Virus record (IMG/VR): IMGVR_UViG_3300033149_002975
Location: 38,812-102,811 of that record
Source: a virus
Direction: 5' to 3' (one strand)
DNA length: 64,000 nt
This document shows positions 4,875-27,270 of the stretch, one piece after another. The position numbers and the translations under genes are program-made. The number at the start of each line of letters is the position of its first letter. Position 1 is the first letter of the stretch. Below the pieces are notes generated by a model. That model saw only the letters and a program-made list of their open reading frames with translations. It had not been told where the DNA came from and searched no databases.

Positions 4875-5356
4875 AATTTAATCCTTCTAGGTGCAATAGA
4901 AAAACATCTCACAATTTCCATATCCTGCATACCTTTTAATGAAAGGTTTACAATTTCGAATTCTGATGTTTTCTCAATACCTTCTGGAACTGTTTCTATA
5001 TCAATTTTAAAATATGATTGTTTACAAATAGATACGTCAACTTCCGATCCAGCATCCGATCCCTCTAAAGCTATGGCCTTTGTTCCAAACCAAGCAATAA
5101 TCGGTAAATTATCTTCTACGTATAATCCAAGTTTCTTTAAACGATAAGCGGTTGGTTGCCACTCAATAAAAACCAAAGCCTGATAACTTATATATTGAAT
5201 ATCAGATGGTGTTGCAAAAATATCAGATTTTTCAGCTTCATTGTACGATGCCACAGTTGGTATATATAGTATACAATCCTGCCCATAATTCGTCAGTGAA
5301 ACATTTACTTGGGTACGTAAGGCGTCAACTAATTCTTTTGGCAGCATTCTGGACAT
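4871..5356 (-). CDS. Neck/head-closure protein (gp14-like)
   Basis: YGQDCILYIP and LKKLGLY motifs; neck-gene context. Confidence 0.55.
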   Translation of the reverse strand: MSRMLPKELVDALRTQVNVSLTNYGQDCILYIPTVASYNEAEKSDIFATPSDIQYISYQALVFIEWQPTAYRLKKLGLYVEDNLPIIAWFGTKAIALEGSDAGSEVDVSICKQSYFKIDIETVPEGIEKTSEFEIVNLSLKGMQDMEIVRCFSIAPRRIKL

Positions 5357-6171
5357 TATTTTTCATTCTCTTCATATTCAACATTAAACGCTGAATCTTC
5401 GATATCTACTTCACCGGTTGGTTCTGATTCAATCCTCTTAGCTGCATCATTCAATTTGGATACCAAATTTTTTATGGCCTCAGCTTCAGTTTTACCATAT
5501 GCGAACGCCGTATATTTAGCAACTTTTCCAGGAACTTTTTCTGCTAATTCGTTAACTTTTGATTCAAATTGTCTTCCCCTCTTAAATCGCCTGTAAATTC
5601 TTTTTACGTATTCTTCATCAAAAAAATTTCTCAACATGTTTTGTGCTTCTTCATACGATATTGTATCCGTGTCTCCTAATCTATCTTCTCTTTCTTCAGG
5701 GGGTAAAGAATTCCAACCATTCATAAACCATTCAACAAAAGGCTCTTCGTAAGCAACATCCCCTCTAGTATCATCCCACCCGGATTCATTTAATTTTTCG
5801 TTCATCGTATCGTTAACATATTTGGTTAATTGGTTAACAATATCCTCTACCGAATCACCCTCCCAATAATCTTTATCTTCAGTTGACAGATCACCGGCAT
5901 TCCAAATTGCATCCAATTGCTCGATAGTTAATGGTTTATTGGATATAAACATAACTTTTGAATCAACTTCATCTTGATCATAATCATAAATAACTGCGTC
6001 ACCACCAACTTGTTGCGTGATTTTTACTATTTCTCTACCGGAAAAACTGTCCTTCCAGTCACAGGAAATTTGTGCTACCCTTATTTTATCCCCGGATTCA
6101 TTTAATTTTTTATCCGTAGGTTCTTCCAACTTATCCTGTACAAATTTTAACATTCTTTCAAAAGCATTCAT
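5356..6171 (-). CDS. Putative cargo polyprotein (leader plus about 3 domains)
   Basis: Segments delimited by KKLNE-SG, EKLNE-SG and ESKVNE. Confidence 0.6.
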   Translation of the reverse strand: MNAFERMLKFVQDKLEEPTDKKLNESGDKIRVAQISCDWKDSFSGREIVKITQQVGGDAVIYDYDQDEVDSKVMFISNKPLTIEQLDAIWNAGDLSTEDKDYWEGDSVEDIVNQLTKYVNDTMNEKLNESGWDDTRGDVAYEEPFVEWFMNGWNSLPPEEREDRLGDTDTISYEEAQNMLRNFFDEEYVKRIYRRFKRGRQFESKVNELAEKVPGKVAKYTAFAYGKTEAEAIKNLVSKLNDAAKRIESEPTGEVDIEDSAFNVEYEENEK

Positions 6172-7118
6172 TATTTTATACCTCCTACAATTTTTTTGGT
6201 TTTTTCAACATCTTTCGGGCTTAATTCCCCATCTTCTAATAGATCTTTTAACTCTTTTATAATACGTAAATATTGATAACGAACAATAAATTTAAATGTT
6301 GCGTTTTTATTCTTCCAAATTTTCTTTAAATTTTCATCCCCCATAGCTTGTTCTTTTGATTGTGGTTGTGAAGCCGACCGGCGGGTTTTTATTAAATCTG
6401 ACCTTTTTTTATACAACATTTCTATATCATTTTCTATCTCTTTCAATTTTCCTTCCAATTTGGTAAGAAACGATTTTTTTAAATCTTTGGGCATTTTAGC
6501 TATTGCTTGTTTTATCGTTTCATAATCTATGATGTCACGTTTCAACTCCCCCATTTGCAAATCAACACCCTTTACTTCTTTTCTAATTTCATCAAAAATT
6601 TCTGAATAATCTTCATATGGGTCATAATCCTCCGGAACTATCTTTGGTCCTTTTAACCAATTGTCAGACATTATATTATAACAAGCATCGGCCAAATATT
6701 CCTGGTTTATATTTGATTGTATATAAACTTCAATTGGATATTTTCCAAAATAACCATTGATTTTGTCTCGATTATCAGAAAACCAGTCAAGTACAGCTTT
6801 TGAAAATTGTTCATCCTCATAGTATTTGGAATCCGTTGGTATCACTATATGAACATCAATATCTGAATCCTCACTGTATTGATTGGTACATATTGATCCT
6901 GTAATGTGAATCATTTTTTCTGAATCTTCACCGGTAGCCGCCATATCAATCAAATCAACATCTTTGTATTTTCCCAAAACATTTAAAATTTTACGCCTTA
7001 CCAAAGGCTTAAGTGTATATTTACCATTTTTAAAATCCCAAATGGATTTATTTAGAGTTTCACCCCTTGGAAAATCAATTGAAGATTCGATGATTCTTTT
7101 ATATAATTGTCCAAACAT
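6171..7118 (-). CDS. Pol-beta-superfamily nucleotidyltransferase with leader (start reassigned to MFGQLYKRIIES)
   Basis: ITGSICTNQYSEDSDIDVHIV (hG[GS]..DxD motif) and PIEVYI. ATG at 7118 removes the overlap with the upstream gene. Confidence 0.75.
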   Translation of the reverse strand: MFGQLYKRIIESSIDFPRGETLNKSIWDFKNGKYTLKPLVRRKILNVLGKYKDVDLIDMAATGEDSEKMIHITGSICTNQYSEDSDIDVHIVIPTDSKYYEDEQFSKAVLDWFSDNRDKINGYFGKYPIEVYIQSNINQEYLADACYNIMSDNWLKGPKIVPEDYDPYEDYSEIFDEIRKEVKGVDLQMGELKRDIIDYETIKQAIAKMPKDLKKSFLTKLEGKLKEIENDIEMLYKKRSDLIKTRRSASQPQSKEQAMGDENLKKIWKNKNATFKFIVRYQYLRIIKELKDLLEDGELSPKDVEKTKKIVGGIK

Positions 7119-7125
7119 TATTTTT

Positions 7126-9408
7126 CTATTCTTTCCTATCTCCAACTGTCCGCCAAAATAGGTTTTCATCAAATCTTGGGTTGTCCTCTTTAAACATCCT
7201 GACCAAAGCTGAAGCAAAAGCTTTAACATCGTCATTCAATGGTACCAGCTTTTTTAATTCTTTGGCTATCTCTTTATAATGCTTTCTTGAAAAATGGGAT
7301 TCATTAACTTTTGATTCTTTCACAATTACTGCAAATTTTTGGGAATCTTCAGAATCCGGTATAACTACCCCGTTTTTCTCTCTCGCAATTCTGTCAGCTT
7401 CTTCTCTATCAACTATCCCTTTCGCGATAACTGTTCTTGTTTCCTTTTCTTCCTCATTAACTTTGGATTCACCAACTTTTATTGTTCCTTCTCTATTTGT
7501 TTCGTCTACCCTTGCATGCTCATCCAAATAATTTTCCAAAACAATTAACTTGTCACGATCAGATGTTGCATTCCCCGTTTCATATATTGCTTGTAGTGCT
7601 TCTTCAAAAACACATTGTGGCTCTTTAGTCCATACGGGGTCCGAATCAAAATGCACGGTAACTTTGTAATAACTTTCTTTTGGTGAAACATTCCTTGGCA
7701 ATCTGGCTTCATTAACCCCCGACATTTCAGACCCCAAATATTTTACACCATTTTCCTCAGCTAACTCTTCTCCTGTCTGATCTGCAAAATCTTTCAATTC
7801 TTCTATCGACAGTGCGTTTTCTGTTCCAGGTTCAGCTATTTGTTGACTATCAAGTCTATGATTTCCAGCGATATAAATTTCTCTATCGGATTTCGTGTCC
7901 ACTATTCTATATCCATATTTGTCTACTACCCCATAAAGATCACCCATTTTCGCGTCTTCATTGGTTTTTCGTTCCGGGAGAATATAAGTTCCATCCAAAT
8001 CTTTTATTTTTCTAGAACTAATGACACGTTTTTCCGGACTCTTCACTCTTGCCTTATTCATTGCGTCAACACGCGAATTGGCATCCAACTCCACAACTGA
8101 ACCGTCAAAAAATATAACTCTATATGTGCCGGGGTCAACGTGTACCCCAACTTCGTTCAATTCTCCGGTTATTTTCTCAACTCTTTCACTGCCACATTCT
8201 GTACATTTAGATTCATTAGCTCTAAAAGTTTTGCAACATTCATTACAAAGATAAAGGCTTTTCCTTGTTAATGATTCACTGGTTCTAAGACGACGGCCGG
8301 CAGTTCTTCTAGGACGGCCGGCAGTTCTTCTAGGACGGCTGGCAGTTCTTGCCCCACGTTCTGTATAACCACACGAATTACAAACCCACGAACCACGAAC
8401 TGGCGTCATTTTTTTATTGCATTTTGGGCACTTTTTTCCCGCCATTATTCTTTTGCCAACACCAAACTTTTGTCTCTGATATGATCCTCTACGAGGACCA
8501 GTTCCACTTCGTTCACCACTTTTAGTAAAAGATTCACCAACCTTTTTCATGCTACGGGTACCGGTTTCACTGTGAATCTTTTTACCTTTTGTATCTACTT
8601 TTTCTTCCGCCTGGGGGTTTTCCACCATCCCCACATCTTCCGCCTTTAACCCCTTTCCCTCTCCGGGTTTTTGGGTCTGGGGAACATTGGGTTTTGTTTT
8701 ATCCTTAACTTTTGCTTTTTTTGATGCCGGTGCAGCAGGTGTTGATTTGGCCTTTGAACCATCAGTAGCCACTACTCCTTCAGCAACCGTTGATTCACTA
8801 GTATCCCAAACAATATTATAAGCTGTTCCGGTTCCATCGTCATTTCGTTTGATATCTAATTCGCTAACTAGGAACCCATAGCTATCGGACAAATAATCAG
8901 CAACGGCCGTATCATTTCCCGCCTCTTGATCATCCATTATTTCTTTTGGAACATTATCGACCTTTTTTGGTAAATTATTGGCCTCACTTGTCACAGTTTT
9001 ACTACGTTTTCCTCTTAACCACCTTCGTTCGGGACCCCACAGGTGGGCACCAGGTAAAGCTTCTCTGATCTTTTTCTTTTCAGTAACTTCGGTATTGTCA
9101 AACAGTTCTCTAATTTTATTATTAATCTCTTTACTGTATGGCAATTCATTTATATCTTCCGGAACATAAATATTGGTAGTTTCTTTACCGTTGTTAAATT
9201 TTATTTCTTCTTTTATGCTGCCAGTAGCTGTTTCTACATAAACGTCAACATCTGAATCAACATCTTTGTATGCCCCAACGTATTGCCATATTCTATTGGC
9301 TTCTCTGATCTTTTTCTTTTCAGCTTCCCTTATTGCCCTATCGTTTTCAGCATAAGCTTTTTTCAACGATTCAAAGAGATCAAACATTCCTTGGTTCTGC
9401 ATTCTCAT
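7126..9408 (-). CDS. Putative cargo polyprotein, 760 aa
   Basis: Many short unrelated segments, including CPKC..CNSC and CNEC..CTEC Zn ribbons, separated by KKIREA x2, LNE, TNE, VNEA and ESKVNE x2. Confidence 0.65.
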   Translation of the reverse strand: MRMQNQGMFDLFESLKKAYAENDRAIREAEKKKIREANRIWQYVGAYKDVDSDVDVYVETATGSIKEEIKFNNGKETTNIYVPEDINELPYSKEINNKIRELFDNTEVTEKKKIREALPGAHLWGPERRWLRGKRSKTVTSEANNLPKKVDNVPKEIMDDQEAGNDTAVADYLSDSYGFLVSELDIKRNDDGTGTAYNIVWDTSESTVAEGVVATDGSKAKSTPAAPASKKAKVKDKTKPNVPQTQKPGEGKGLKAEDVGMVENPQAEEKVDTKGKKIHSETGTRSMKKVGESFTKSGERSGTGPRRGSYQRQKFGVGKRIMAGKKCPKCNKKMTPVRGSWVCNSCGYTERGARTASRPRRTAGRPRRTAGRRLRTSESLTRKSLYLCNECCKTFRANESKCTECGSERVEKITGELNEVGVHVDPGTYRVIFFDGSVVELDANSRVDAMNKARVKSPEKRVISSRKIKDLDGTYILPERKTNEDAKMGDLYGVVDKYGYRIVDTKSDREIYIAGNHRLDSQQIAEPGTENALSIEELKDFADQTGEELAEENGVKYLGSEMSGVNEARLPRNVSPKESYYKVTVHFDSDPVWTKEPQCVFEEALQAIYETGNATSDRDKLIVLENYLDEHARVDETNREGTIKVGESKVNEEEKETRTVIAKGIVDREEADRIAREKNGVVIPDSEDSQKFAVIVKESKVNESHFSRKHYKEIAKELKKLVPLNDDVKAFASALVRMFKEDNPRFDENLFWRTVGDRKE
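8290..8350 (-). repeat. 21-bp tandem repeat (about 3 copies) encoding RTASRPRRTAGRPRRTAGRR
   Basis: gacggccggcagttcttctag repeated. Confidence 0.8.
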
Positions 9409-9413: not shown

Positions 9414-9857
9414 TTACTCCTTTATAGAATTTGACATATCTATAATTTTTGCTTTATTGCCATTAATATCCGTCCAATTACCAGCTTGTCCTGTATTTTC
9501 CCAATCAATTAGATCCTTAACTCTGTCATAAATTGTCTTTCCCCGCGTCCACATTGCAACCTCATATTTCCCATTTACATTTATCATCGGTTTATATTCA
9601 ACCGGTAAACGGGCAAAACGTGTATTTAACAATGCATGAACCACAGCCGGTGTATTTTTTTCAGACCCCAAAATCCAATTTAAAATATTGAGGGCCAATT
9701 TATCCTTGGGTAAGATACTAGCACCATTTTTTATCAAAATATCAAACAGTTTATCCACACCGGTACAAGGGGCATTCAATTTGTAATCACCCAGAATTTG
9801 CAACAAGTTTTTATAAACCGTTAAATTTTTAGCTTCAAACAATTTATTGATGTTCAT
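9414..9857 (-). CDS. Putative internal head protein with short leader
   Basis: MNINKLFE-A, the same KLFEA as the predicted capsid maturation site. Confidence 0.55.
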   Translation of the reverse strand: MNINKLFEAKNLTVYKNLLQILGDYKLNAPCTGVDKLFDILIKNGASILPKDKLALNILNWILGSEKNTPAVVHALLNTRFARLPVEYKPMINVNGKYEVAMWTRGKTIYDRVKDLIDWENTGQAGNWTDINGNKAKIIDMSNSIKE

Positions 9858-9859: not shown

Positions 9860-11275
9860 TTATTTTTCCTTTTTAATAACTAAATCATCTATTACATTTT
9901 TAATTCTTTGAAAAGTCCCCCGTTTAAACAAACCACCAACGGGCCAAATCGTACTGTACACAATTTTGATTCCCGATGTTATATCTTCCTCAATTGCATC
10001 GAGTAACTCTTTGTCGGCCACATAAATTGTCTGACTTGGGTTGTACATAAAATCTATAAGATATTCAAAACCTAAATGGTATCCTTCGTATAAAGAATTC
10101 ATTCTAGTACCAAATATGTAATCAAAATCCCTAAAAACATCAAAAGTATTCAATTCCGACTTATTGGATAATGCAGCAATTAGCATTTCCAAATTTCCGC
10201 GGTCTTCACCGTATTCACGTAATAGTCGTCCATAGATTCGTTGTATATCACGTTTCATTTTCTCATTAGAAACCGCAATTGATTCCCCGGAAGAAGTTGT
10301 ATATTGCACAACACCAAATACTGAATACCAATTCCACGCCATCTCTTGAAGTTTTATGAATTCCTTATTATGAAATAACGAATATAATTCAGTTTTTAAT
10401 TTTGAACGAAGTTTCTTCATATCCGCTTCATTGGCCTCGAATAAACGACGTTCCTCCAATGATTCCTTCATATTCCCGAGCTTCAACAATTTTCCGTTTA
10501 TCTTGTTGCCAAATATCTTCAAAAAACCATCCCAGTGTTTTTTGGGAACTAAAAACTTGACTTTATTTTTAATTATAAACTGTCGTGGGTCCAAATCATC
10601 TAAAATTTCCAAATCCCAATCAGGTTTTTCTTCAGCTAAAGTTGTAAGCATTGCTTTAACAGCTCCTAGTTGCGTCGGCAAATAAGAAATGTTGGACATA
10701 GTGGTGGATTCATTAATCTTTACTTCATTGGCGGTTATAAGTTCCATTTCCCGCTTACTTGCACCCAACAACCATTCCAATTGTTCTTTCGGATGAAGAC
10801 TTGGAATTGATATAGCCTTCTTAAACCATATAATTCTTCTGAACCCATACCTATCATATAGATTGCATATTGTATTAATTTGTTTGTCAGTTAATTTTTT
10901 CTTATTTTCTATATTAATTTCTTTATTACTAACTGAAACCACAACAGCCCCTGAATCAAGCATACGATATTTATCGTAAATATCACTATCTGTATATTCC
11001 AGGGCCAACTCCCCCAGCCGTCCTTCTCTGTATTTACGTTCCCCTTTTTTATAACCAAAATCTTTGTGTGCAAACGGTACGTGAATTAATGACCCATCAT
11101 TTAACAACCAAAATTTAACGTAATTACCTTCGCGAGGCCACGTGCTATATTTCTTATAATCAGCTTCTTTCGCAACGCCCCATTTCTTTTTTACCAATGA
11201 TTGGATATTGGGCAATCTCGACTCGTCAATCATTACTCCATCAAAGACTTTTGTTGCTAAATTGTATAAAGACAT
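9860..11275 (-). CDS. Putative cargo polyprotein, 471 aa
   Basis: Leader ends MIDE-S; internal EVKINE-S and ESLEERRLFE-A. Confidence 0.6.
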   Translation of the reverse strand: MSLYNLATKVFDGVMIDESRLPNIQSLVKKKWGVAKEADYKKYSTWPREGNYVKFWLLNDGSLIHVPFAHKDFGYKKGERKYREGRLGELALEYTDSDIYDKYRMLDSGAVVVSVSNKEINIENKKKLTDKQINTICNLYDRYGFRRIIWFKKAISIPSLHPKEQLEWLLGASKREMELITANEVKINESTTMSNISYLPTQLGAVKAMLTTLAEEKPDWDLEILDDLDPRQFIIKNKVKFLVPKKHWDGFLKIFGNKINGKLLKLGNMKESLEERRLFEANEADMKKLRSKLKTELYSLFHNKEFIKLQEMAWNWYSVFGVVQYTTSSGESIAVSNEKMKRDIQRIYGRLLREYGEDRGNLEMLIAALSNKSELNTFDVFRDFDYIFGTRMNSLYEGYHLGFEYLIDFMYNPSQTIYVADKELLDAIEEDITSGIKIVYSTIWPVGGLFKRGTFQRIKNVIDDLVIKKEK

Positions 11276-11295: not shown

Positions 11296-13461
11296 TTAGT
11301 ACGGACTTTCTTCCGGTAATCTACCAAGCTTTGTAAGAATCTGCCGCACCTCCTCAAGCCATTTATCTAATTGCAACCCACGTCTAGACTCAGGATCATC
11401 TATATCCATCACCAGATGTCCAAGTGCCGGAAAATCTCTGTGCCACTGATTAACAGCATTATCTAAAGCAACCAACGCCTCACCCGGGTCTTTTCTAATT
11501 ATTGCCGATTGAATTTCTTGTAATCTTTTTCTATACGCTTTATAAATTTCCTCATCTTCAATTTTATCCTGTTCGTATTTATCATACCACTCCAAATATC
11601 CTTTATAATAGCCCTTCATCATATATAAAGCTTCAAACACGTTTTCTGGTGATGGGTCGATACCCCTTTCTATGTCATGATAAACTTTATACAAAGCTTT
11701 GACCCCAGAATAATCAACGGATTCTTTTAACCGATTTTTCCAATATTCATTTTCCGCTTTAATACCATTTTCTGAAGTAAATTTTGATCCACCTTCCTCA
11801 AACCACCATTTAGTGTATTCATCAAAAAGATAAAAATCAGCGTAGTGACCCCAAAATTCTATATCGACCCATAATTTTAATTGTAATTCAGCCTCTAATT
11901 GTGCCTTTTCATTCCTTGATAATTTACCGTAAGCAAATTTATCAACTTTGAAATATTTTTCATAATCGGGTTCCCACCACCCCATCCAATCACCCGCCGG
12001 TACTGGTTTATTGGGTTTTCTATTTAATATATAAATCACCTTATTATTATCAAGAATTTTAACAGTATATTTATCATTCGATGCTTCGGCTATTGATTTT
12101 ATCGTTCCATTCGTGTAACCAGTTATTGTTCTTTTATCATTTTCATATTCATCATAAACGAATTTGGCAAATTTGTCTTCATTTATCGATTCTCTTAAAG
12201 CGTACCCACCACTAAATATACTGTACCCATTTTTATCCCTTGCATCAAACCATTTACTACTTTTTTTCTTTCTAAAAATAATAGCTGGTGAATTCTTATA
12301 CATAATTCCGGCAGGAACATGAACTTCAACCATTTCCCCGCCTTTATCAATAATTTTTACATTATCCAATTCCACAATATCCATTTTTGGGTGTGATCTA
12401 CTTCCGGACCATTCCGCCCATTTAACCTTAACATTTTCATATTCTTTTGGGTAACCAACAACCTTTTTTCTAGATAATTCTTTCATTTGTTTCAAATCTT
12501 CATCCGCTTGCATACGAGTATCTTCATCATAGTCTTGTGGGTTTATATAAACATTTATATCATAATAATCGGTCGGATTATACTTGCAACTTGTATGGTG
12601 CCACTCGGACGGGGAAAGAACTTGTTTTAATGCTTTAGTTGTTACACCCAATTTTTTTGCAGCAATGGAAGCAGGGAATTTTCCAATATGTTCCGCCTCA
12701 ACCGCCCTTTTACTTTTAGAATACCCAACATAACCTCTTTCATTAATTGATTCTTTGGTCTCTTCTTTCTCCGGCTCTTCCTTCTCCGGCTCTTCTTTTT
12801 TTATCTCTTTTCTCTTCCCTAATTCCTCGCCAGCCTTTTTGAATTCTTCGGATTCTTTCTTAGCTTCATCCTCGAATTCTTCAATATCTTTTCCATAAAA
12901 ATCATTCAACCATCGAGCAATCGTCGAATTGTAAAACGGCAAAGCCTTAAATAATGCGTCCAAATGCTTACACACAGCCCCATATTGATGTGGATTTCTA
13001 ATTCTTGGTGCCCTGGTTTCTTTATCCCCATATTTCGCATTATATTTATCTTTGCTTAATATATAATTGAAACCCCAATATTGCTGACAGGGACAATTAC
13101 ACGTGATTTTAACTTCCGCTTGATTACGAAATTCATTAGCCAACAACCTTAAATCAATTTTCGATTTATCACGTGTCCACAATCTTCGATCTTTTACCAG
13201 TTTTTCCAAAGTTGGTGTAATATTTGAAAATTTGATAACCGCGTCATACCATACAGACTTTTTAGTTCCAGAATGAATTTTAAAATGCCAGGATTCGGTT
13301 CCTAATCTATCCAACCTGACACCACCCATATGGCCAACCTTTTCCACACGCCCAGGGTGGGCTGGGAACAAAGAAGTGATGGTACGTTGCTTTCTTGTAA
13401 TATCAGCCACCGTTGCTTCATTTATTCTATCAATAGTTTTTGTTAATAATTTGTATAACAT
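11296..13461 (-). CDS. Putative cargo polyprotein with SWIM-like Zn finger, 721 aa
   Basis: Leader ends RINE-A; CNCP...CKHL; linkers KESINE, RESINE, LKES. Confidence 0.65.
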   Translation of the reverse strand: MLYKLLTKTIDRINEATVADITRKQRTITSLFPAHPGRVEKVGHMGGVRLDRLGTESWHFKIHSGTKKSVWYDAVIKFSNITPTLEKLVKDRRLWTRDKSKIDLRLLANEFRNQAEVKITCNCPCQQYWGFNYILSKDKYNAKYGDKETRAPRIRNPHQYGAVCKHLDALFKALPFYNSTIARWLNDFYGKDIEEFEDEAKKESEEFKKAGEELGKRKEIKKEEPEKEEPEKEETKESINERGYVGYSKSKRAVEAEHIGKFPASIAAKKLGVTTKALKQVLSPSEWHHTSCKYNPTDYYDINVYINPQDYDEDTRMQADEDLKQMKELSRKKVVGYPKEYENVKVKWAEWSGSRSHPKMDIVELDNVKIIDKGGEMVEVHVPAGIMYKNSPAIIFRKKKSSKWFDARDKNGYSIFSGGYALRESINEDKFAKFVYDEYENDKRTITGYTNGTIKSIAEASNDKYTVKILDNNKVIYILNRKPNKPVPAGDWMGWWEPDYEKYFKVDKFAYGKLSRNEKAQLEAELQLKLWVDIEFWGHYADFYLFDEYTKWWFEEGGSKFTSENGIKAENEYWKNRLKESVDYSGVKALYKVYHDIERGIDPSPENVFEALYMMKGYYKGYLEWYDKYEQDKIEDEEIYKAYRKRLQEIQSAIIRKDPGEALVALDNAVNQWHRDFPALGHLVMDIDDPESRRGLQLDKWLEEVRQILTKLGRLPEESPY

Positions 13462-13464: not shown

Positions 13465-14268
13465 TTAGACCGCTACCAAACTCTCGGTATTGTGGGAACA
13501 GATACCATAATGTCCAATAGCAAAATTACAATTTCTGCATAAAATTCTAAAATCACTTGGAAAATTATTATAAATTATCCAATCATATATACCGGACCCA
13601 ACATCTTTTCTGTGTTTACAACCACCACCACAAATATGATCGACGGATAACACATCAAAATTCTCTTCCCCGCAGCATTCACACTTCCCACCATAATAAC
13701 CAATAACTGTACTCCTAATTCGTGCATAACGTCCATTAACACGTTTAATTGAATTAAGATATTTTAACCAATTACAATTATGACATAAAACCTGAAATCC
13801 TGATGGAAAATTATTATTAATTATCCACCGGTAAAACCCATAACCACTAAATGATTTAATTTGTTCTGTTCCGCCGCCATTAATATGATCTACGGTCAAG
13901 AACATTAAATTGGACTCACCACAACAAGCACATTTGCCACCATAATGGGTAATAATTTGTAATTTTATTTTCTGTCCATACTCAAAATGTCTCAATTTCT
14001 CTTCGGTGGCGTGATTATCCCTAAATTTCTTTCCGTACCTCCTTATTTCTTCAATATGTTCTTTTCGATACAAACCCCAATATTCATTAAACCGATCTTT
14101 GTTGTCCTTTCTATATGTACTCTTACATTCTTTACACTTTGAATACAAACCATCCGGTGAATATTTGTTTCTACTAAAATATACTGATGTAGCTGGTAAT
14201 TCTCTTTTACAACCAGAACAAATTTTAATACCATCATTAATCATATTTTGCGCGCGAATATGACCCAT
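13465..14268 (-). CDS. HNH-type endonuclease with two tandem HNH-like domains (likely homing endonuclease)
   Basis: N-terminal CSGC..CKEC; two copies of YGGKCxCCGE..L[TS]VDHI.GGG..NNFPS.F..LC.NCN. Confidence 0.75.
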   Translation of the reverse strand: MGHIRAQNMINDGIKICSGCKRELPATSVYFSRNKYSPDGLYSKCKECKSTYRKDNKDRFNEYWGLYRKEHIEEIRRYGKKFRDNHATEEKLRHFEYGQKIKLQIITHYGGKCACCGESNLMFLTVDHINGGGTEQIKSFSGYGFYRWIINNNFPSGFQVLCHNCNWLKYLNSIKRVNGRYARIRSTVIGYYGGKCECCGEENFDVLSVDHICGGGCKHRKDVGSGIYDWIIYNNFPSDFRILCRNCNFAIGHYGICSHNTESLVAV

Positions 14269-16609: not shown

Positions 16610-18949
16610 TTAAGATTTTAATCCTAATACATTGTTAATAATTGTTTTCTGACGTTTTCTAACTGGGTCGATTGGTTCTTTTCGCTTTTCAATTAATACC
16701 GTTTGCACCGGATTGGCATGAAGTGCACGCCTACGCGAAACATCGCGGCATTCGTCTAAAGCTTTATCGACCTCTTCAATTGTCTGACAACTTTCAAGAA
16801 GTGCTCGTTGGTTGTCAGAAATTTGTAGCCCATTTGATTCCTTTGTTAAATATTCTTTAATTATTCTTGCTCTAACTTTTTTTTCAGTTTGCTTTATTTT
16901 TTCATCAAATTTTTTGTTGGCCTCCGTCATTTCCCTATCATGCTTTTTCTTTAATCCTGCGGCCTTTTGTTTTAAATATGAAGTTACTTTTTTGATTTCT
17001 GCTTTTGCATTATTAAGTTTCTTCTCCAATATGTTTATCTTTGCTGTTAATTCATTGCTACGTTTCATTAAATCCTGTGCTGATTTTGCCTTCTCTTCAA
17101 GTTTTAACCTTAAAGCCAAAACATCATCAGATTCTGCATTCCTCATTTCTTTAAGCTTTTTGGTAAGAATTCGAAATTCCAAATCTTTATCAGCTATGGT
17201 ATTCAAAAATTCGACTGCCAAATCTCTTTCAGCGCGTGAGGTGGCTTCTTTAATTTGTAATTCCATGATATCTTTACCAATGGGTCTAACTATTTCCGGT
17301 TTCGATACAGACATTACCCCCTCTGGAACTGTTTCACTGAAAGAAGTTTTCAATATTCCGGCAATTACCTTCGCCATTTCAACAGCTTTTTCTTTTGTTG
17401 GAAAACTAAATGTCAAGTAAGCAGCACCATTTGCTGGCTTCCTATAAACACCGTATTTATCATTCAAAAAACCGGTCTCATCAACAAATAATATGTCTTT
17501 ATCCTCATTAATTTTTGACTCTTCAAGAACTATTATTTCATATTGTGATTCATCATACCAGTCATCAATACCGTCAATTTTTACGGCGGTCGTTCCTTCG
17601 GGTTCCGTTGTACTAACATCCACAACTTTTCCAAATGGAACAATTGTCGTGTTACCGTCTTTATCTTTTATTTGTACAATATTCCCAACTTTATAACGTT
17701 CATTTAACATTTCATTGATATAATCAATAATTTGTTCCACCGATTCATTCCTTTGGTGTGCCGGTTTTACGGCACGTTTCTTTCCCAATGCACCCATACA
17801 ACGCTTGTAGGCTTCTTTTTGCGTCATTTCTCCAGATTTGATTTTTGCCGCATAACCTGTAGCACATTTGTGGAAAGCTTTCGTGTGGACCCCTTTACCT
17901 TTTGGGGGTTTCAAACCTTTGCTGGTGTACAATTTTCTAATCTCTTCTGTTTCATTAACTTTTGATTCTTTCATATCTTCCGAATCCAAATCAAATTCCT
18001 CCTCAAAATCTTCGTCCGACAATTCGATATCTTCACCGGACGTATCATCGTCAACGTCCCCAGTTTCCGTTTGCGTCCCATCATCAGGTATAGCTATTTC
18101 ATCAGGTGCTCCTTGTGGGGGCGTTTCCACGGTAATTTCAACCGTTGAATCGGGTTGATCCGGTAACACATTAACCGATTTTACATCCCCGGTAGCAACA
18201 ATTTTTTGTGTATTTGGGTTCACTCCCACCGTTATTTGTTCTTCATTGGTCCTTGATTCAGACGATATTCTAATATTACCTTCAACTATTTTACATTCCC
18301 CTTTATCATTACACTCTATAGATTCCAAAAGTTTCATTGCAAATCGTTTCTCTTCCGGCTTTATTTTCTCGTTCTCAATTTCTTTGCGGACGGCAGACAT
18401 TATGTTTCTTTTTATGTCTATTGGGAAAGCACCAAATGTTGAAGGGTCTGCCGTAAAATCTGTAACTTTAAAATTATACGCTTCAGGAATTACATGATAA
18501 CATTTATTGCCGGACTCATCAATTTCTTCTCTCAAATCACCCTCAGCCCTCGTTGACACACCAATATTACATTTGGCAGCCAACAATGCGTCAATAATTC
18601 TGCCCTGCGGGGTATCCAGAACATCCATCTCAGTATATACTTTACTCTCGTCCATCCACATTTTAACAATTACGTGAGAAATTAATGGAGTTTTGGATTG
18701 AATGCCGTCAGGGTGCTCTGCGTGCCCAAATAACGAACGATTCTTTATTGAATCCATCAATTCTTTGTTTTCAAAGAGCCTTTCCCACACATCGCGTCCG
18801 TATATTCGGTGATTGGCATTAATTTTCCCTATATTACAAATGGGATAGACCACACGGCATAAAACACGATCCGGCAATTTGTCGGTTTTCACCAATCTCC
18901 CGCCTGTGGTAATCGATTCATCCAATTTTTGGTTTTTTAATATTCTCAT
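16610..18949 (-). CDS. Prohead protease (gp21/S80-like) fused to inserted domains and a C-terminal coiled-coil scaffold
   Basis: INANHRIY, FGHAEHP, LDTPQG, GVSTRAEG, DFTADPS; long C-terminal coiled coil; immediately upstream of MCP. Confidence 0.88.
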   Translation of the reverse strand: MRILKNQKLDESITTGGRLVKTDKLPDRVLCRVVYPICNIGKINANHRIYGRDVWERLFENKELMDSIKNRSLFGHAEHPDGIQSKTPLISHVIVKMWMDESKVYTEMDVLDTPQGRIIDALLAAKCNIGVSTRAEGDLREEIDESGNKCYHVIPEAYNFKVTDFTADPSTFGAFPIDIKRNIMSAVRKEIENEKIKPEEKRFAMKLLESIECNDKGECKIVEGNIRISSESRTNEEQITVGVNPNTQKIVATGDVKSVNVLPDQPDSTVEITVETPPQGAPDEIAIPDDGTQTETGDVDDDTSGEDIELSDEDFEEEFDLDSEDMKESKVNETEEIRKLYTSKGLKPPKGKGVHTKAFHKCATGYAAKIKSGEMTQKEAYKRCMGALGKKRAVKPAHQRNESVEQIIDYINEMLNERYKVGNIVQIKDKDGNTTIVPFGKVVDVSTTEPEGTTAVKIDGIDDWYDESQYEIIVLEESKINEDKDILFVDETGFLNDKYGVYRKPANGAAYLTFSFPTKEKAVEMAKVIAGILKTSFSETVPEGVMSVSKPEIVRPIGKDIMELQIKEATSRAERDLAVEFLNTIADKDLEFRILTKKLKEMRNAESDDVLALRLKLEEKAKSAQDLMKRSNELTAKINILEKKLNNAKAEIKKVTSYLKQKAAGLKKKHDREMTEANKKFDEKIKQTEKKVRARIIKEYLTKESNGLQISDNQRALLESCQTIEEVDKALDECRDVSRRRALHANPVQTVLIEKRKEPIDPVRKRQKTIINNVLGLKS

Positions 18950-18966: not shown

Positions 18967-21900
18967 TTATCTCTTTAAAAGCTTTCTAAGCAAATCTACA
19001 CCGCGTGAAGGAACAATAAAATCTTGTGGTTGCCTGGTTTCTTCCAATTTTTTGTCATTTTTCTTGATACGCACCGCTTCCGATATTTTTATTGATGGAT
19101 AAGCAGCGTGCACGGCACGTTTTACTTTATCCTGTAAACTCTTTAAGGACCCAGAATACCAAGGTGGTGACGACTTATAATGCTTACAATACGATAAAGC
19201 GGCCCTTGCTTGCTTGGCGGTATTAATTGGAAAATGATCTTTTTTGTCTTTTGATTTTTCTGCAGGAAATACGACCTTACCTCTATTACGGTTTTCGGCT
19301 TTTGGATTCAATTTCCTACCGGTTTTCTTGGAAACCATTGCTTCTCGTAATTTATTCATTTTTAACCCCTTTTCATTCATTGATTCCTTTAAAATCGGTG
19401 CTTCTACGCCCGGACTACCAAAAATATCTGGGCTTCCATAATACATCAACAAATCTGATACTCTATACGGTAATGGTTTTTTCATCCATTCTTCCTCTGA
19501 TCCTGCACCGGAAAACTTCACTACATCCTTGATATTAAACCGCCCACCATTTTCTATTAATTCTTTAAGATCATCCTCTGAAAATTCAGTAATGGAAAAT
19601 TTAGTATATTCATCAGGGTTTTCTTCACCGCCGTGTTGTGTTCCATAAATAAACAAGAAATTCCCATTACCCAAGTCTTTATGTATCAAACCATAATTGT
19701 AAAGACTTATTTCAACATTCGCATCAACGGAACCTTCAAAACCGTCATCAATGGCCCTAGTTAACGTGTAATCATTTGGAATTTCTTTCATAGTCTCATT
19801 AATTTTTGATTCTTTCAACATACCGGAATAAACATAAAATTTATTATCTATATCTATTACATAATCATAATTATCTGCATCTTCTTTAGCAACCTCGACC
19901 CATTCCGACAATTCGTCATTGTTCACATTAAACAGTATTACATACCCATTGTATTCTTCTATCAATTTATAACCGGAATCTTCAATCAAATCGATATGTT
20001 CGTTAATATTGGATTCATTTCTTGGTTTAAATTGACCCTCCCCACGCCTGGCTTGGTCCTCAGTTCTCTTTAATTCATCGCCGTGCAAAATGTAAGGATT
20101 TTCCTCATCTTCATCAGATTCCTCATCATTATTTTCCTCAGCACTCTGCTTGACCAAATCATCATATTCCTCTTGTTCCATATATGACAAGGCATCCAAT
20201 GCCAATTCCCGCAAACCTTCTTCCGACAATTCACCTTCTGAATTTCTCCACATAGAAGCAAAGTCCGAGTCAAAACGAAATTCACGACCATTTATGCTTA
20301 TCACTGTATCCAGTGTTCCATCATCTTCCAAATAAACATCAAATTCATTCGTTCCATCAGAAACTTTCATTTCAATTAACGGCTTATTCATTTTCGACTC
20401 TTTAAGAGACATGCTTCTCAACCATGCATGAATTTCCGGTTTATTATAATCAGTAAATAATGAAGACCTTATATAATCATTTATTTTGTCAATACTGCTA
20501 TTATTTGGTGTAAGCCCGCCGCTCCAATCCTTGAAATCAGCTATTATTGCATTTTTAGCATCCTCTGACAACAAATCGTTGGGACATTTTTCCCCTCTCA
20601 TTTTTCTTACACCTTTATCCCCATAAATGCTTCTTTGTGCAGAATCTTTGTATGGGCCAGTACCATCCCTTTTACCACGAATATTTTTTCCTTCACTAAT
20701 CTGTTTTAAAATTTTTGATGCCAAATCAATTTTTGATTGCAATTCGTTGATATCATCAAACGTCAACTTATAAGTTTTTATCAAGGTATCTATTACTAAA
20801 CGAGTTGTGTCCAAAGCCATATTTTCTCTTTTTTTAGTTGGATCACTCTTTACTTTAATTATGGCATCTGATACAATTTTTGCAATCTCTTCATCGTTTG
20901 GCAACGCCACTTTTTCAACAATATCTTTCATCATTTTAATCTTAAAACCCCTATCATCACATTGTGGACAAATACCACCTCTTCTTAGTTCAGAGTATTT
21001 AGCTTTATATCCACACATCGGACAAATGTATTCATCGGCTAGCAACCCCGCTTTTTCAACAATTTTCGATTCCTTTTTCTCCCTTTCAATCTCTGCCGGG
21101 TGTGGCGGCGGCTCAACTTTTGATCCTTTTTCCCCCGTATTTTCCTCTTCTTCTGGCTCTTCCTCTTCTTCTGGCTCTTCCTCTTCTTCTGGCTCTTCCT
21201 CCGGTTCTGGTGCTTCTTCTTCAGGCATTATATAATTCATCACTACATCCCTAGTTACTGAATCTATATCAACATCCCTTATTACCGAAGCAACAAACCC
21301 ACGTATATCTTTAACATCCAATAATTTTTCTTTTGCAGAATAAACTTTATTGCCCTCCTGATCAACCAATTGCAAATCCCCATCATCGGTCGTTACCATA
21401 TAATAATGGTTGTCTTCCGATTCCCCTACATATTCCTTCTCAATTGGGGCTTCTTCTGGTTCCGTATCAGTATCGGCCTTTTTCCCTAATTCCTGCTCTG
21501 GTCTAAATTTAGGTTTGTGTTCTGTTTTTGGTTTCAGTTCTTTGGGGATATCTTCATAGTTGGGTTCTTCTACATCCCCTTTTATTTCATCTTCATTAAC
21601 TCTAGACTCATCAACAATCAATGAACTAGATTCCGCGAATTTATCATAAAAAGCAATAAACCTATCTATCGCTTCTTCAACATTTTTTACAAAACGTTTA
21701 CTGTTCCTATCTTTCGTAGTATAGAATTGTGCAAGATTAAACTCTGGAGTATCAACGGAAACGTAAAAACCATCATCACGCTTTTTTACTTTAACATCTT
21801 TTCTCTCTATTCCTTCATTAACTTTGGATTCGGTGGCCTTTGCCAATTTTTTAACTTTTCTAGCAAACCTATTGATCCATCTTTCCTCACCGGTATCTTT

Positions 21901-22263
21901 TATGCGAATTTTTAATGATCTATTATCGGGACTTATATCCAAAATTTCGGCGTCGGACCATTGTTTGCCGCCTTTAGTAACAGCTTGTGATCCACCCACC
22001 GGGACTTTGACTATTTCACCGATTTTATAGGTTAATTTTCTATATATGTCTGGATCCGGAATATTGGATTCACCCACCAATGAATTGCGAATATTCTCTA
22101 CAGTTGTTATTCTCGTCGATTTATTAACCGATCGCAGCTTTCTGCTACCGACAGCAATTCTTTCAAAAAGCGACATATTGGGGTCTTTAAATTTTTTGGA
22201 ACTCGTCAACGAACTGTCTTTTATCCCCCTGCGCCTTTTTGCCAAATCTTCAAATAAGCTCAT
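18967..22263 (-). CDS. Putative cargo polyprotein, 1098 aa
   Basis: Linkers ESKVNE, ESRVNE, ESKIVE, ESNINE, ESKINE, ESMNE separate 40-150 aa segments (SH3/KOW-like, CPMC..CPQC, HFPINTAKQARAALSY). Confidence 0.65.
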   Translation of the reverse strand: MSLFEDLAKRRRGIKDSSLTSSKKFKDPNMSLFERIAVGSRKLRSVNKSTRITTVENIRNSLVGESNIPDPDIYRKLTYKIGEIVKVPVGGSQAVTKGGKQWSDAEILDISPDNRSLKIRIKDTGEERWINRFARKVKKLAKATESKVNEGIERKDVKVKKRDDGFYVSVDTPEFNLAQFYTTKDRNSKRFVKNVEEAIDRFIAFYDKFAESSSLIVDESRVNEDEIKGDVEEPNYEDIPKELKPKTEHKPKFRPEQELGKKADTDTEPEEAPIEKEYVGESEDNHYYMVTTDDGDLQLVDQEGNKVYSAKEKLLDVKDIRGFVASVIRDVDIDSVTRDVVMNYIMPEEEAPEPEEEPEEEEEPEEEEEPEEEENTGEKGSKVEPPPHPAEIEREKKESKIVEKAGLLADEYICPMCGYKAKYSELRRGGICPQCDDRGFKIKMMKDIVEKVALPNDEEIAKIVSDAIIKVKSDPTKKRENMALDTTRLVIDTLIKTYKLTFDDINELQSKIDLASKILKQISEGKNIRGKRDGTGPYKDSAQRSIYGDKGVRKMRGEKCPNDLLSEDAKNAIIADFKDWSGGLTPNNSSIDKINDYIRSSLFTDYNKPEIHAWLRSMSLKESKMNKPLIEMKVSDGTNEFDVYLEDDGTLDTVISINGREFRFDSDFASMWRNSEGELSEEGLRELALDALSYMEQEEYDDLVKQSAEENNDEESDEDEENPYILHGDELKRTEDQARRGEGQFKPRNESNINEHIDLIEDSGYKLIEEYNGYVILFNVNNDELSEWVEVAKEDADNYDYVIDIDNKFYVYSGMLKESKINETMKEIPNDYTLTRAIDDGFEGSVDANVEISLYNYGLIHKDLGNGNFLFIYGTQHGGEENPDEYTKFSITEFSEDDLKELIENGGRFNIKDVVKFSGAGSEEEWMKKPLPYRVSDLLMYYGSPDIFGSPGVEAPILKESMNEKGLKMNKLREAMVSKKTGRKLNPKAENRNRGKVVFPAEKSKDKKDHFPINTAKQARAALSYCKHYKSSPPWYSGSLKSLQDKVKRAVHAAYPSIKISEAVRIKKNDKKLEETRQPQDFIVPSRGVDLLRKLLKR
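21141..21220 (-). repeat. 18-bp tandem repeat encoding a PEEEEE acidic tract
   Basis: ttcctcttcttctggctc repeated three times. Confidence 0.8.
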
Positions 22264-25007: not shown

Positions 25008-25868
25008 TCAGCGTTTTGTAAATCGGCGTTTCCGCAAATCAACGTGCCGCAAACTGGGTGGTGTTTCCAATGAATCATTATTTTCTTCATCAATTCTGGA
25101 TTCAACTGCGGGGGTTGGCTTCGTTAACTTCGCCAATGCTTCATCAGCCCACTTCTCACCTTCAAATTCAGCCAAAACTTTGGGACCAATATTTTCACCA
25201 CGTTTCAATCTCGCCTGTAATATCTCTCGTCGCCTTGCTTTTGCTGCGTCTGCTAATGGTTTTGGCTCCAATTCCGAAGCGTATCTTTTACCGTATTTTC
25301 TATCCCACGCTTGTTGTCTGATAAGTTGCTTATCCTGTTGAATTGCGGTAGCATGTGGGTTTATTAATGGACGAGGCGGTATTTCTGTAACTTTATCGGA
25401 TTCTGTGATATCCGTTTCTTCTGGTTCCACAGCACGTTGTAATATTTTGAGAAATTTTCTGCCCCATTCTCTGTCGTATTCTTTCATTTCTTCCGACAAT
25501 TCTTCATACGGTTTAAAGCATTCATCGTTCCAACGTTTAGCTCGTTCTTCACTTATTGCTTCGGTCTTTAAAATATCTTTAGCCCACGACATCCATTCTT
25601 CATGAACCAATGCCGACACTTTTTCCAATAAATCGCTCGGTTCGTCAGATTCCGCATCAACTTCTTTCAAGTATATATCGGAGACTACGGTTTTTTTGCC
25701 CTTGGTGGTAATTGCATCTATTACATAATCTTCAGCAGCCGCTTCTTCTTTTATACTTGGGTCGGTGGTTTCTATCAATATTTCCACCCGAAACGTTCTC
25801 TTAACGGCCGTGGCTTCCTGAAACCTTCTCAATCTATCGCCATCTATTACTTTATCAAAAATGCTCAT
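25008..25868 (-). CDS. Putative cargo polyprotein (start reassigned to MSIFDKVID)
   Basis: Leader resembles that of 25897..27270; VHEEWMSW..PYEELSEEMKEYDR (RyR-like motif); ITE-S and ESRIDE sites. Confidence 0.6.
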   Translation of the reverse strand: MSIFDKVIDGDRLRRFQEATAVKRTFRVEILIETTDPSIKEEAAAEDYVIDAITTKGKKTVVSDIYLKEVDAESDEPSDLLEKVSALVHEEWMSWAKDILKTEAISEERAKRWNDECFKPYEELSEEMKEYDREWGRKFLKILQRAVEPEETDITESDKVTEIPPRPLINPHATAIQQDKQLIRQQAWDRKYGKRYASELEPKPLADAAKARRREILQARLKRGENIGPKVLAEFEGEKWADEALAKLTKPTPAVESRIDEENNDSLETPPSLRHVDLRKRRFTKR

Positions 25869-25896
25869 AAAATTACACACTGGTTGAAAACATTAA

Positions 25897-27270
25897 TTAT
25901 TCTGTTTTGGTCGATTTATCCTCCGGTAATCTGGCACCGCGTAGATCGGCACCGCTCAACATTTCGTTTTTTGGCATCTTTGCACCAGACAAATCAGCAC
26001 CACGTAGATCGGCATCTTGTAAATCAGCCTTCTGTAAATCAGCACCAGGTAAGTCGGCGTTTCGTAAATCGGCGTTTCGCAAATCGGCGCCCCGTAGATC
26101 GGCGTCTTGTAAATTGGCATACGCCAAATCGACTTTTTGCAAATTGGCACCTTGCAAATTGGCACCATATAAATCCACATATGGTAGTCTAGCCCCCTGC
26201 AAATCAACATTCTGTAGATCGGCACTTCGTAGATTGGCACTGTGTAAATCGGCACCATGTAGATCGACACCCTGCAAATCAGCGCCGTGTAGATCTGCGC
26301 CGTGTAGATCTGCGTCTGGTTTTATTTTATATCCACGAACCTCAATTGGACGGGGTGGTATTCCCGTACCCCCTTCCTCATTAACTATTTCCTTCCGAAG
26401 AGATCTAAATATCTTACCAAATTCTTTCCATTTATTGCCTGGTATTTTTGATTCATTTCGATAAGTTGGTATCAAACTACTTAATTTATAATTCTTAATA
26501 AGTCCTAAACTGTTCAATTTATATCCACTAAATCCATGCCTTTTAAGTTCCGAAACCAATTTATCAATAACTTTATCCGCCGCATAATCCCCATCATCCA
26601 TAGAAAAATTGGAAGTAAATTCTATATCAAAAGTTTTTTGACCCAGATTGGGTGTTGCACACGTAACATTGGCTATATAATTATATGGTGCCCCATAAGC
26701 CTTGGCGGATTCTGTAACGGTCGGTTTATCCTTTGGCAATTTGGCGACCAGCAAATTGGCACCATCCATCAATCTGTCGTCTGGCATTTTAGCACCACGT
26801 AAATCAGCGTGATATAAATCAGCGTTTCGCAAATTGGCTCCTTCCAAATTAGCGCCCTGTAGGTTGGCTCCCTGTAGGTTGGCTCCCTGTAGGTTGGCGT
26901 ATTGCAATTTGGCTCCTTTCAAATCGACACCACGTAAATCAGCACCACGTAAATCGACACCACGTAAATCAGCACCACGTAAATTGGTATCCCGCAGGTT
27001 AGCGTTCCGTAAAGTGGCGCCATAAAATTTAACATCGTGTAAATCGGCGCCCGACAAATTGGTGTTTTGTAAATAGGCACCCTGTAAATTGGCGTCGTGT
27101 AGATCAATGCCCGACAAATCGGCGTCTGGGAAATAAACACTGTGTAAATCGGCACCGGGTTTTGCTTCGTATCCATTAATCTTAATGGGTGGTGCAGATT
27201 CCGTTAATGATTTTGATTCAGCTAACCTTTTTATTTTACCATCATCTACTATTTTATCAATAATGCCCAT
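25897..27270 (-). CDS. Putative cargo polyprotein with two pentapeptide-repeat domains
   Basis: A[DN]LxG repeats in two blocks; LAES/LTES, VTES, RNES and IVNE sites at domain borders. Confidence 0.85.
   Translation of the reverse strand: MGIIDKIVDDGKIKRLAESKSLTESAPPIKINGYEAKPGADLHSVYFPDADLSGIDLHDANLQGAYLQNTNLSGADLHDVKFYGATLRNANLRDTNLRGADLRGVDLRGADLRGVDLKGAKLQYANLQGANLQGANLQGANLEGANLRNADLYHADLRGAKMPDDRLMDGANLLVAKLPKDKPTVTESAKAYGAPYNYIANVTCATPNLGQKTFDIEFTSNFSMDDGDYAADKVIDKLVSELKRHGFSGYKLNSLGLIKNYKLSSLIPTYRNESKIPGNKWKEFGKIFRSLRKEIVNEEGGTGIPPRPIEVRGYKIKPDADLHGADLHGADLQGVDLHGADLHSANLRSADLQNVDLQGARLPYVDLYGANLQGANLQKVDLAYANLQDADLRGADLRNADLRNADLPGADLQKADLQDADLRGADLSGAKMPKNEMLSGADLRGARLPEDKSTKTE

Follow-up and report, generated by a model that had tools for sequence, protein, structure and literature searches.

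Head genes and linker peptides of the locus

We analyzed a 64,000-nucleotide stretch of viral DNA (the window), which comprises bases 38,812–102,811 of the 102,811-bp IMG/VR record IMGVR_UViG_3300033149_002975; the ends of this record are direct terminal repeats of 114 bp. On plain open reading frame (ORF) calls, the virion genes form the left arm of the window and lie on the minus strand. They include a gp23-type capsid protein, a gp21-type prohead protease fused to a scaffold, and several large proteins in which unrelated modules are joined by a recurrent six-residue linker, ESK[VI]NE. This linker, which is probably a cleavage site of the protease, is the subject of this report. The genes that carry it and the sites associated with it are as follows (↓, proposed cleavage; aa, amino acids; E, expectation value; pLDDT, predicted local distance difference test).

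16610–18949, minus: protease-cargo-scaffold fusion, 779 aa (N-terminal propeptide, S77 protease, variable middle modules, C-terminal coiled coil)
18323–18916, minus: mature protease domain, aa 12–209, bounded by invariant L-x-E↓S at E11 and E209
18242–18259, minus: linker ESRTNE, aa 231–236 of the fusion, within a stretch of pLDDT<50
17951–17968, minus: linker ESKVNE, aa 328–333 of the fusion, at the end of a low-confidence stretch and bordering a helical module
17504–17521, minus: linker ESKINE, aa 477–482 of the fusion, within a stretch of pLDDT<50 (aa 467–523)
16613–17281, minus: coiled-coil scaffold part, aa 557–779 (long helices with pLDDT 70–91; kept in relatives)
15057–16601, minus: gp23-type major capsid protein with N-terminal propeptide (PF07068, E 7.5e-31)
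16365–16373, minus: presumed capsid maturation site L-F-E(79)↓A (capsid alignment)
18967–22263, minus: 1098-aa multi-module protein with six strong linkers, directly upstream of the protease gene
21814–21831, minus: linker ESKVNE, aa 145–150 of the 1098-aa protein (motif search)
21592–21609, minus: linker ESRVNE, aa 219–224 of the same protein (motif search)
21055–21072, minus: variant linker ESKIVE, aa 398–403 of the same protein (motif search)
19999–20016, minus: linker ESNINE, aa 750–755 of the same protein, after the fold at aa 624–713
19795–19812, minus: linker ESKINE, aa 818–823 of the same protein; the homologous module in a related locus (L001) starts at its own ESKVNE
19372–19386, minus: linker ESMNE, aa 960–964 of the same protein, upstream of a confident DUF6582 fold at aa 993–1063
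11296–13461, minus: 721-aa protein with a leader, a conserved SWIM module (aa 16–241) and variable modules
12739–12753, minus: linker ESINE, aa 237–241 of the 721-aa protein, at the SWIM module border
12178–12192, minus: linker ESINE, aa 424–428 of the 721-aa protein (motif search)
7126–9408, minus: 760-aa multi-module protein with Zn-ribbon modules, a basic module and a 45-aa mini-module (sequence, homology)
7453–7470, minus: linker ESKVNE, aa 647–652 of the 760-aa protein (motif search)
7300–7317, minus: linker ESKVNE, aa 698–703 of the 760-aa protein (23 nucleotides identical to 17951–17973)
5356–6171, minus: 271-aa protein with a leader, two KLNE↓S sites and one ESKVNE (motif search)
5548–5565, minus: linker ESKVNE, aa 203–208 of the 271-aa protein (motif search)

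An earlier note, made from the letters alone, had listed eight ORFs among the head genes as chains of unrelated segments, and had counted the exact hexamer seven times in four of them and never on the plus strand. All eight ORFs are present on the minus strand, and a search by frame and strand confirmed the count: ESK[VI]NE occurs exactly seven times, always in frame, in ORFs 5356–6171 (one copy), 7126–9408 (two), 16610–18949 (two), and 18967–22263 (two). ESRVNE occurs once, in ORF 18967–22263, and neither form was found in other frames or on the plus strand. The other variants named by the note were also recovered (ESNINE, ESINE twice, ESMNE, ESRTNE, ESKIVE, ESRIDE, KLNES twice, and KIREA twice). 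The head-module proteins comprise 7,190 residues, in which within-protein shuffles gave an expectation of 0.002 copies of ESK[VI]NE against the seven observed, and no copy was found in the remaining 26,252 residues of the proteome of the 102.8-kb genome; the enrichment that the note had proposed to examine is therefore clear. A degenerate DNA pattern for the motif likewise matched seven times against 0.01 expected from dinucleotide shuffles, and these two statistics rule out chance or low complexity as the origin of the motif. When tandem pentapeptide repeats are set aside, ESKVNE is the most repeated hexamer of the proteome. The residues that flank the copies are unrelated and the synonymous codon positions vary, so the copies are not duplicated blocks of DNA.

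To place the motif in its clade, we used 36 related loci with 38–70% capsid identity, which came from an alignment-based capsid-protein scan of viral contigs; a single-sequence scan of the same kind recovered no loci. Genomic contexts were taken from IMG/VR loci and from a single genome-collection contig. In the window genome and the 36 loci together, the pattern ES[KR][VILMT][ND]E has 62 instances, and there is no conservation around them outside the six-residue island. ESKVNE and ESKINE recur in many of the loci (L003 has five copies of the first and one of the second), and other lineages use ESKTNE, ESKVDE, ESVNE, ESKKVNE, ESKLNE, or ESIIKE, of which ESKTNE, ESKVDE, ESVNE, and ESIIKE preserve the shape hydrophobic-x-acid or amide-E. 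Every locus carries its linkers in the same three kinds of ORF: the one for protease and scaffold, its large immediate upstream neighbour, and those lying downstream of the capsid gene. Matches to the 1098-aa ORF among 1.84 billion representative proteins included one with five ESKVNE and one ESKVDE (P0129) and one with four ESKVNE and one ESKKVNE (P0135). The loci span 36–55% GC, and the codons of the motif track the usage of each genome, with serine encoded by both TCN and AGY. Because the motif persists over this range with both serine codon families, selection acts, as judged from these comparisons, on the peptide and not on a DNA element; together with the varying codons, the same observations rule out a DNA-level repeat element. 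No paper on the hexapeptide emerged from a literature search. In some relatives, large head-module proteins carry another recurrent peptide, EGK[VS]P[NDS], close to their N-termini, sometimes in multiple copies (L014, L025, L029, L032; P0132, P0142).

Some linker-coding sites within the genome share exact DNA identity of 20–25 nucleotides. A 23-nucleotide exact repeat is common to two genes (7300–7322 and 17951–17973, both linker-coding), and a 25-nucleotide exact repeat occurs twice, 240 bp apart, in ORF 7126–9408 (9059–9083 and 9299–9323, encoding EKKKIREA). Such repeats could act as microhomology for module exchange. The identity may thus aid recombination, but conservation across genomes of differing GC needs another cause.

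The protease of the fusion was recognized by PF03420 (32.4 bits; cut-off 27) and by PHROG 207 (E 5e-28). Four features are invariant in 32 aligned protease-scaffold ORFs: E11 (L-x-E↓S), H79 (E-H-P), S132 (S-T-R), and E209 (L-L-E↓S); from what is known of the family, we take H79 and S132 to be the catalytic pair. The best Foldseek match of the modeled protease was T4 gp21 (5JBL chains; E 7.8e-7, probability 1.00, template modeling score 0.69–0.78, root-mean-square deviation 2.2–2.7 Å), followed by herpesvirus proteases. This relationship emerged from the structural search only, as gp21 was missed when PDB sequences were searched with phmmer or with profiles. On its sequence and predicted structure, the enzyme is a gp21-type S77 protease with an assemblin-like fold. 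The fusion gene sits directly upstream of the capsid gene, and in 31 relatives (ORFs of 533–1545 aa) the N-terminal protease part (aa 1–215) and the C-terminal coiled-coil part (aa 555–778) are conserved, with a variable middle.

In the capsid protein, F78 and E79 are invariant in 29 sequences (45–92% identity), and the conserved mature N-terminus begins immediately after them. In T4, gp21 cleaves after Glu in L/I-x-E, and its own N-terminus holds a matching LIE-9 (PMC9026906). Given the gp21-type protease and the invariant L-x-E↓S and LFE↓A sites, the clade is predicted to have T4-type maturation chemistry with the general site hydrophobic-x-E↓[S/A]. The final three residues of every linker (V/I/T/L/M, N/D/K, E) obey the hydrophobic-x-E rule, which agrees with the match to the gp21 rule drawn by the earlier note, and S77 was the sole protease found beside linkers in the related loci. 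Some linkers may also be cut a second time, upstream, after their first Glu (E↓S); this would not be general, because the P3 residue of that site is hydrophobic in only about half of cases.

A hydrophobic-x-E↓[S/A] site also occurs within the first 30 residues of 13 of the 30 head-module ORFs, versus 4 of the 103 others (Fisher P = 4.5e-7). In the window and in relatives alike, these leaders resemble short amphipathic helices. Ten residues of the T4 capsid targeting sequence are enough for loading and are then removed by gp21 (PMC9026906), and the leaders of the window resemble that sequence by analogy.

Module borders and module exchange

We compared the linker positions with two AlphaFold models. 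In the model of the 779-aa fusion, the protease domain (aa 21–210) was confident and aa 215–331, which hold ESRTNE, were almost all of low confidence. The first four residues of ESKVNE at aa 328–333 close a stretch of pLDDT<50 (aa 271–331), and a helical module (aa 333–418) starts at the last residue of the linker; the coiled coil was confident over aa 557–775. The model of the 1098-aa ORF was limited to aa 604–1098 and built from a curated set, because 150 phmmer hits, when aligned globally with MAFFT, gave a usable alignment for the C-terminal module only. It contained two folds with pLDDT above 90, aa 624–713 and aa 993–1063 (a Pfam DUF6582 match covers aa 984–1053), and ESNINE, ESKINE, and ESMNE lay wholly or almost wholly in stretches below 50. 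No linker was found inside any confident fold of the two models; the earlier note had named motifs within predicted folds as evidence that would contradict its proposal.

The 1098-aa ORF opens with two leader copies, MSLFEDLA... and MSLFERIA..., 29 residues apart (22120–22263, minus strand). The second copy may mark an alternative start within the ORF, or the targeting signal may have been duplicated.

The proteins that illustrate module exchange, and the remaining head-module proteins, are as follows.

9860–11275, minus: 471-aa protein with a leader, an extra 171-aa module, a KINE junction and a conserved C-domain (homologues)
10709–10720, minus: junction K-I-N-E(189)↓S, the counterpart of RLLE↓ATT, IFE↓TTT and MNE↓TTT in relatives
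6171–7118, minus: Pol-beta-type nucleotidyltransferase, leader ending I-I-E(11)↓S (PF01909, 24.4 bits; cut-off 21)
25897–27270, minus: 457-aa protein with a leader (LAE↓S), two pentapeptide-repeat domains and a middle module, borders VTE↓S and IVNE (PF00805, E 4e-83)
33861–34409, plus: stand-alone pentapeptide-repeat paralogue, start codon uncertain (49–55% identity to both domains of 25897–27270)
30031–30630, minus: DUF5662 protein, leader ending L-T-E(12)↓A, stand-alone here (PF18907, E 1e-27)
9414–9857, minus: conserved 147-aa head-module protein, leader ending L-F-E(8)↓A, kept in 18 relatives
25008–25880, minus: 290-aa protein with a leader (FQE↓A), a RyR domain and ESRIDE at 25086–25103 (PF02026, 27.5 bits; cut-off 27.4)

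Five modules of the 1098-aa ORF (aa 268–350, 503–589, 615–715, 818–960, and 984–1076) are found again in relatives, both in different orders and in different ORFs. For instance, the homologue of 818–960 stands ahead of that of 615–736 in L001, and the homologues of 503–589 and 616–714 are swapped in L006. Stand-alone forms were found at 79 aa (module 621–715), at 131 aa (839–951), and in many copies of 107–140 aa (the DUF6582 module). In the 760-aa protein, the 45-aa mini-module (aa 653–697) fills the exact gap between the two ESKVNE copies. At least eight relatives also have this mini-module, in one case within a protease-scaffold ORF, and in five of the eight copies examined a variant linker stands just upstream (ESKVTE, ESKIEE, ESIRE, EAKVQE, or ESVANE). 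Module aa 138–211 of the 271-aa protein also recurs within a protease-scaffold ORF, that of L025. Both ORF 7126–9408 (at 8350–8520) and ORF 18967–22263 (at about 20575–20710), on the minus strand, contain a basic module of about 45 aa that is rich in Gly (R-[DS]-G-T-G-P ... C-P); many relatives have it too, at varying positions.

Three proteins retain the same mature N-terminus after hydrophobic-x-E, behind a leader or another module alike. The nucleotidyltransferase, whose start we set at Met40 of ORF 6171–7235, begins as IIE↓SSIDFP behind its leader in the window, and in L013 and L020, where it follows other modules, as VTE↓SLIDFP and VSE↓SAIDFP; in most relatives it is stand-alone. The C-domain of ORF 9860–11275 follows a 171-aa module as KINE↓STTMS in the window; more than 25 relatives have homologues about 290 aa long, whose alignment with the ORF starts at aa 187 and which stand behind short leaders of their own, mostly with the junction hydrophobic-x-E↓ATT or TTT. 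The DUF5662 protein has a 59% identical copy in L003, which is fused behind a SWIM module and an ESKDE linker. Both repeat domains of ORF 25897–27270 match the stand-alone plus-strand gene border to border, and L001 holds a pentapeptide block within a large polyprotein. As the modules have moved between ORFs and are found as stand-alone genes, the sequence comparisons support the view that they are autonomous, and the suggestion of the earlier note that the pieces exist as free genes elsewhere is borne out by these examples (79–140 aa).

The SWIM module is conserved in about 30 relatives, either stand-alone or with other C-terminal parts, and in the window it ends at the ESINE of aa 237–241. 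Its family is widespread, viral, and stand-alone, with members of about 250–290 aa. Some of its structural neighbours in the Atlas are T4-type portal-domain proteins of 769 aa, which hints at a portal-associated role. The SWIM module, the C-domain of ORF 9860–11275, and the nucleotidyltransferase are core genes in nearly all relatives; these “cargo” modules may serve in head structure or assembly and not form part of an expandable payload.

The 25 residues after KINE (10640–10720) are 44% identical to the capsid sequence after LFE79 (16295–16373), with a pair E value of 0.006; the C-domain and the capsid protein may share an N-arm or binding segment on this sequence similarity. Between the head genes, a Cys-rich protein (13465–14268, minus strand) contains an internal duplication (58-nucleotide repeat, 76% identity, 246 bp apart). 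It resembles a tandem HNH-type nuclease by sequence reading, has no Pfam hit, and has a homologue in L003 only.

Proposed cleavage of the linkers and rival explanations

We consider it likely, from sequence comparisons and structural models, that the linkers are gp21-type (S77) prohead-protease cleavage sites in capsid-internal polyproteins and lie between independently folding modules. Capsid loading and cutting of the modules inside the capsid are probable because the hexapeptide fits the rule of the phage's own head-maturation protease. In the proposed pathway, short amphipathic leaders, or fusion to the protease and coiled-coil scaffold, would bring the multi-module proteins into the prohead core, around which the capsid shell would then close. 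The protease would release itself at L-x-E↓S (E11 and E209), the capsid protein would be trimmed at LFE79↓A, the leaders would be removed, and the linkers would be cut after their final Glu, so that each polyprotein would yield several small proteins inside the capsid. Only the linker would be under selection, and modules would therefore be free to be added, lost, reordered, or transferred between genes at the junctions. The 15 strong linkers and the leader sites give roughly 25–40 predicted products, depending on the weak sites counted; the dozens of small effectors of the earlier note are an upper bound.

The fate of the products is a separate matter. Their retention in the head and subsequent ejection into the host is favoured by the fact that the modules are compact, conserved folds that also occur as free genes, the pentapeptide type even in the other arm, and we regard this as possible, with somewhat less than even prospects. 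Pentapeptide repeat proteins are a class known for DNA mimicry. The broadest form of the idea is that the hexapeptide is a universal “cut here” joint, that any small protein could be inserted with it, even between protease and scaffold, and that a shuffled set of a few dozen proteins is ejected with the DNA across the clade; this we hold to be rather unlikely. If correct, it would amount to a modular grammar of cargo loading for which no phage precedent is described.

Several observations weigh against cleavage between independent modules. The six conserved residues exceed the three-residue gp21 rule, and Thr at P3 (ESKTNE) is atypical, so the motif could have another reader as well; hydrophobic-x-E is all that the capsid and autoprocessing sites (LFE↓A, LLE↓S) have in common with ESKVNE. 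The AlphaFold alignments were shallow in several modules and the module between the last two linkers was poorly modeled, and the position of linkers between folds was accordingly well tested for some linkers only. In a crude overall comparison of BLAST boundaries, internal ends of high-scoring segment pairs fell within 12 residues of a site in 61 of 274 cases, compared with 28 ± 13.5 for random sites (P ~0.02), which is weak support because the pairs are not independent. The placement at domain borders claimed by the earlier note is consequently upheld by homology boundaries and the two models and is qualified by poorly modeled neighbours and by this modest test. Foldseek searches of the aa 604–1098 model against PDB and BFVD gave nothing significant, and the Atlas returned no result for module aa 616–720. 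Finally, the nearest isolates are distant: among 50,697 phage records, the capsid proteins that match best, those of Listeria phage LIS04 and Bacillus phage HSE3, are only about 26% identical, and LIS04, the one whose region was examined, is without large multi-module head proteins. Both of these phages carry the protease-scaffold fusion.

The strongest competing explanation accepts that the sites are cut and differs in the function of the pieces, which would be scaffold, core filler, or assembly factors that are degraded or expelled before DNA packaging, like T4 gp22 and the propeptides of SPN3US. The linkers do occur within the scaffold-bearing protein, several modules are core genes in nearly all relatives, and SPN3US takes off long propeptides by multiple cuts (PMC10052503). 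Several inter-linker stretches are acidic and of low complexity, and for these stretches the explanation gains in likelihood. However, many of the modules are confident compact folds of 60–170 aa, modules are conserved as stand-alone genes, the pentapeptide module is also free in the plus-strand arm, and folded domains of this size would be unlikely to exit a closed shell. For the modules as a whole, we judge this explanation to be unlikely.

It is considerably less probable that the peptide is never cut and is instead a short linear motif, such as one that docks to the inside of the capsid, the portal, or the scaffold, or a flexible linker kept for its recombination-promoting DNA. This would account for conserved positions beyond the known requirement of gp21 and for the exact identity of 20–25 nucleotides between some linkers. 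Nevertheless, DNA homology is insufficient to explain a peptide that is kept over such a range of GC contents with both families of serine codons, and a docking motif alone would not be expected at every module border. The last three residues, moreover, always obey the protease rule, and the equivalent junctions in relatives require hydrophobic-x-E only.

Cutting by another enzyme, either a host Glu-specific protease or the membrane-anchored trypsin-like S1 protease encoded at 27281–27985 (minus strand; PF13365), is barely credible: the S1 gene lies in the same gene block and some S1 enzymes are Glu-specific, but the enzyme has a predicted N-terminal membrane segment by sequence reading, and it was rejected as the reader of the motif because none of the 36 linker-bearing loci has a homologue of it within 10 kb of its capsid gene. 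The S1 gene and the genes for small membrane proteins around it lie between those for the portal and the head.

Beyond the sampled loci, the capsid protein has at least 290 metagenomic relatives, all uncultured, with identities down to about 43% among the 120 matches listed. Capsid relatives fall in three Asgard archaeal genome bins, Thorarchaeota, Hodarchaeota, and Borrarchaeum (P0024, P0065, and L037). L037 is a 21-kb stretch of a 179-kb contig, without terminal repeat, of the Candidatus Borrarchaeum weybense metagenome-assembled genome, and it shares the head module of the window and ES-K-x-[N/D]-E linkers. Because relatives are present in these bins, Asgard archaea may be hosts of some members of the clade; the bins could also be mis-assigned. 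No match to Amidase_2, Phage_lysozyme, or SLT was found in the window genome.

Comparison with known systems and implications

One close parallel is that of the T4 internal proteins (IPI, IPII, IPIII, and Alt; PMC9026906). Both systems have a gp23-type capsid protein, a gp21-type protease, and leaders ending hydrophobic-x-Glu, with cleavage after Glu that is predicted in our case, and in both the cargo genes differ between related phages. In T4, however, cargo proteins are encoded one per gene, each with a single leader; Alt undergoes C-terminal trimming as well, and repeated cuts occur only in core proteins such as gp22. The phage of the window instead has unrelated modules in one polypeptide, joined by the conserved six-residue linker, and cargo between protease and scaffold in one gene. 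No ORF gave a Pfam or PHROG hit to IPI–III or Alt.

In phiKZ-like giant phages, as in the case of SPN3US gp245, a gp21-related protease cuts numerous head and ejection proteins after Glu at a short motif, and multiple cuts are possible per protein (PMC10052503, PMC5694885); both properties are predicted here. The SPN3US motif differs (A-x-E), its cuts mostly remove or fragment the N-terminal propeptide of a single mature product, and a repeated linker between shuffled autonomous modules is not described for that phage. The polyvalent proteins of phages and conjugative elements are multi-domain proteins predicted to be packaged with DNA (Iyer, Burroughs, Anand, de Souza, and Aravind, 2017; PMC5512222). 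They likewise combine several unrelated domains per polypeptide, as is observed among the virion genes here, and may be released by proteolysis. They differ in having a known domain repertoire (MuF, ART, zincin-like peptidase, ParB-like, and others) and peptidase domains of their own, whereas the unifying feature of the proteins in the window is a uniform linker that fits the prohead protease. The signature domains MuF, ART, zincin-like peptidase, and DdrB-ParB had no Pfam match, and the only matches were S77, NTP_transf_2, Pentapeptide, RyR, DUF6582, and DUF5662.

The herpesvirus assemblin precursor shares the protease fold and the layout of N-terminal protease, self-release site, linker, and C-terminal scaffold, but its linker holds no cargo domains. 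The herpesvirus sites have the consensus (V/L)-x-A↓S and are not cut after Glu. The known parts are thus T4 gp21 processing and targeting sequences, phiKZ-like head processing, polyvalent proteins, and protease-scaffold fusions. A literature search found no description of a clade-wide six-residue linker that joins shuffled modules, nor of cargo between protease and scaffold.

If the linkers are cut, the phage would be able to enlarge or reshuffle its capsid cargo without a new targeting signal for each protein, because a module would need only the six-residue joint. This would account for the rapid turnover of internal head proteins and would supply a rule by which virion cargo could be predicted from the sequences of metagenomic phages. 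It would also offer a simple one-gene design for loading several foreign proteins into T4-type capsids.

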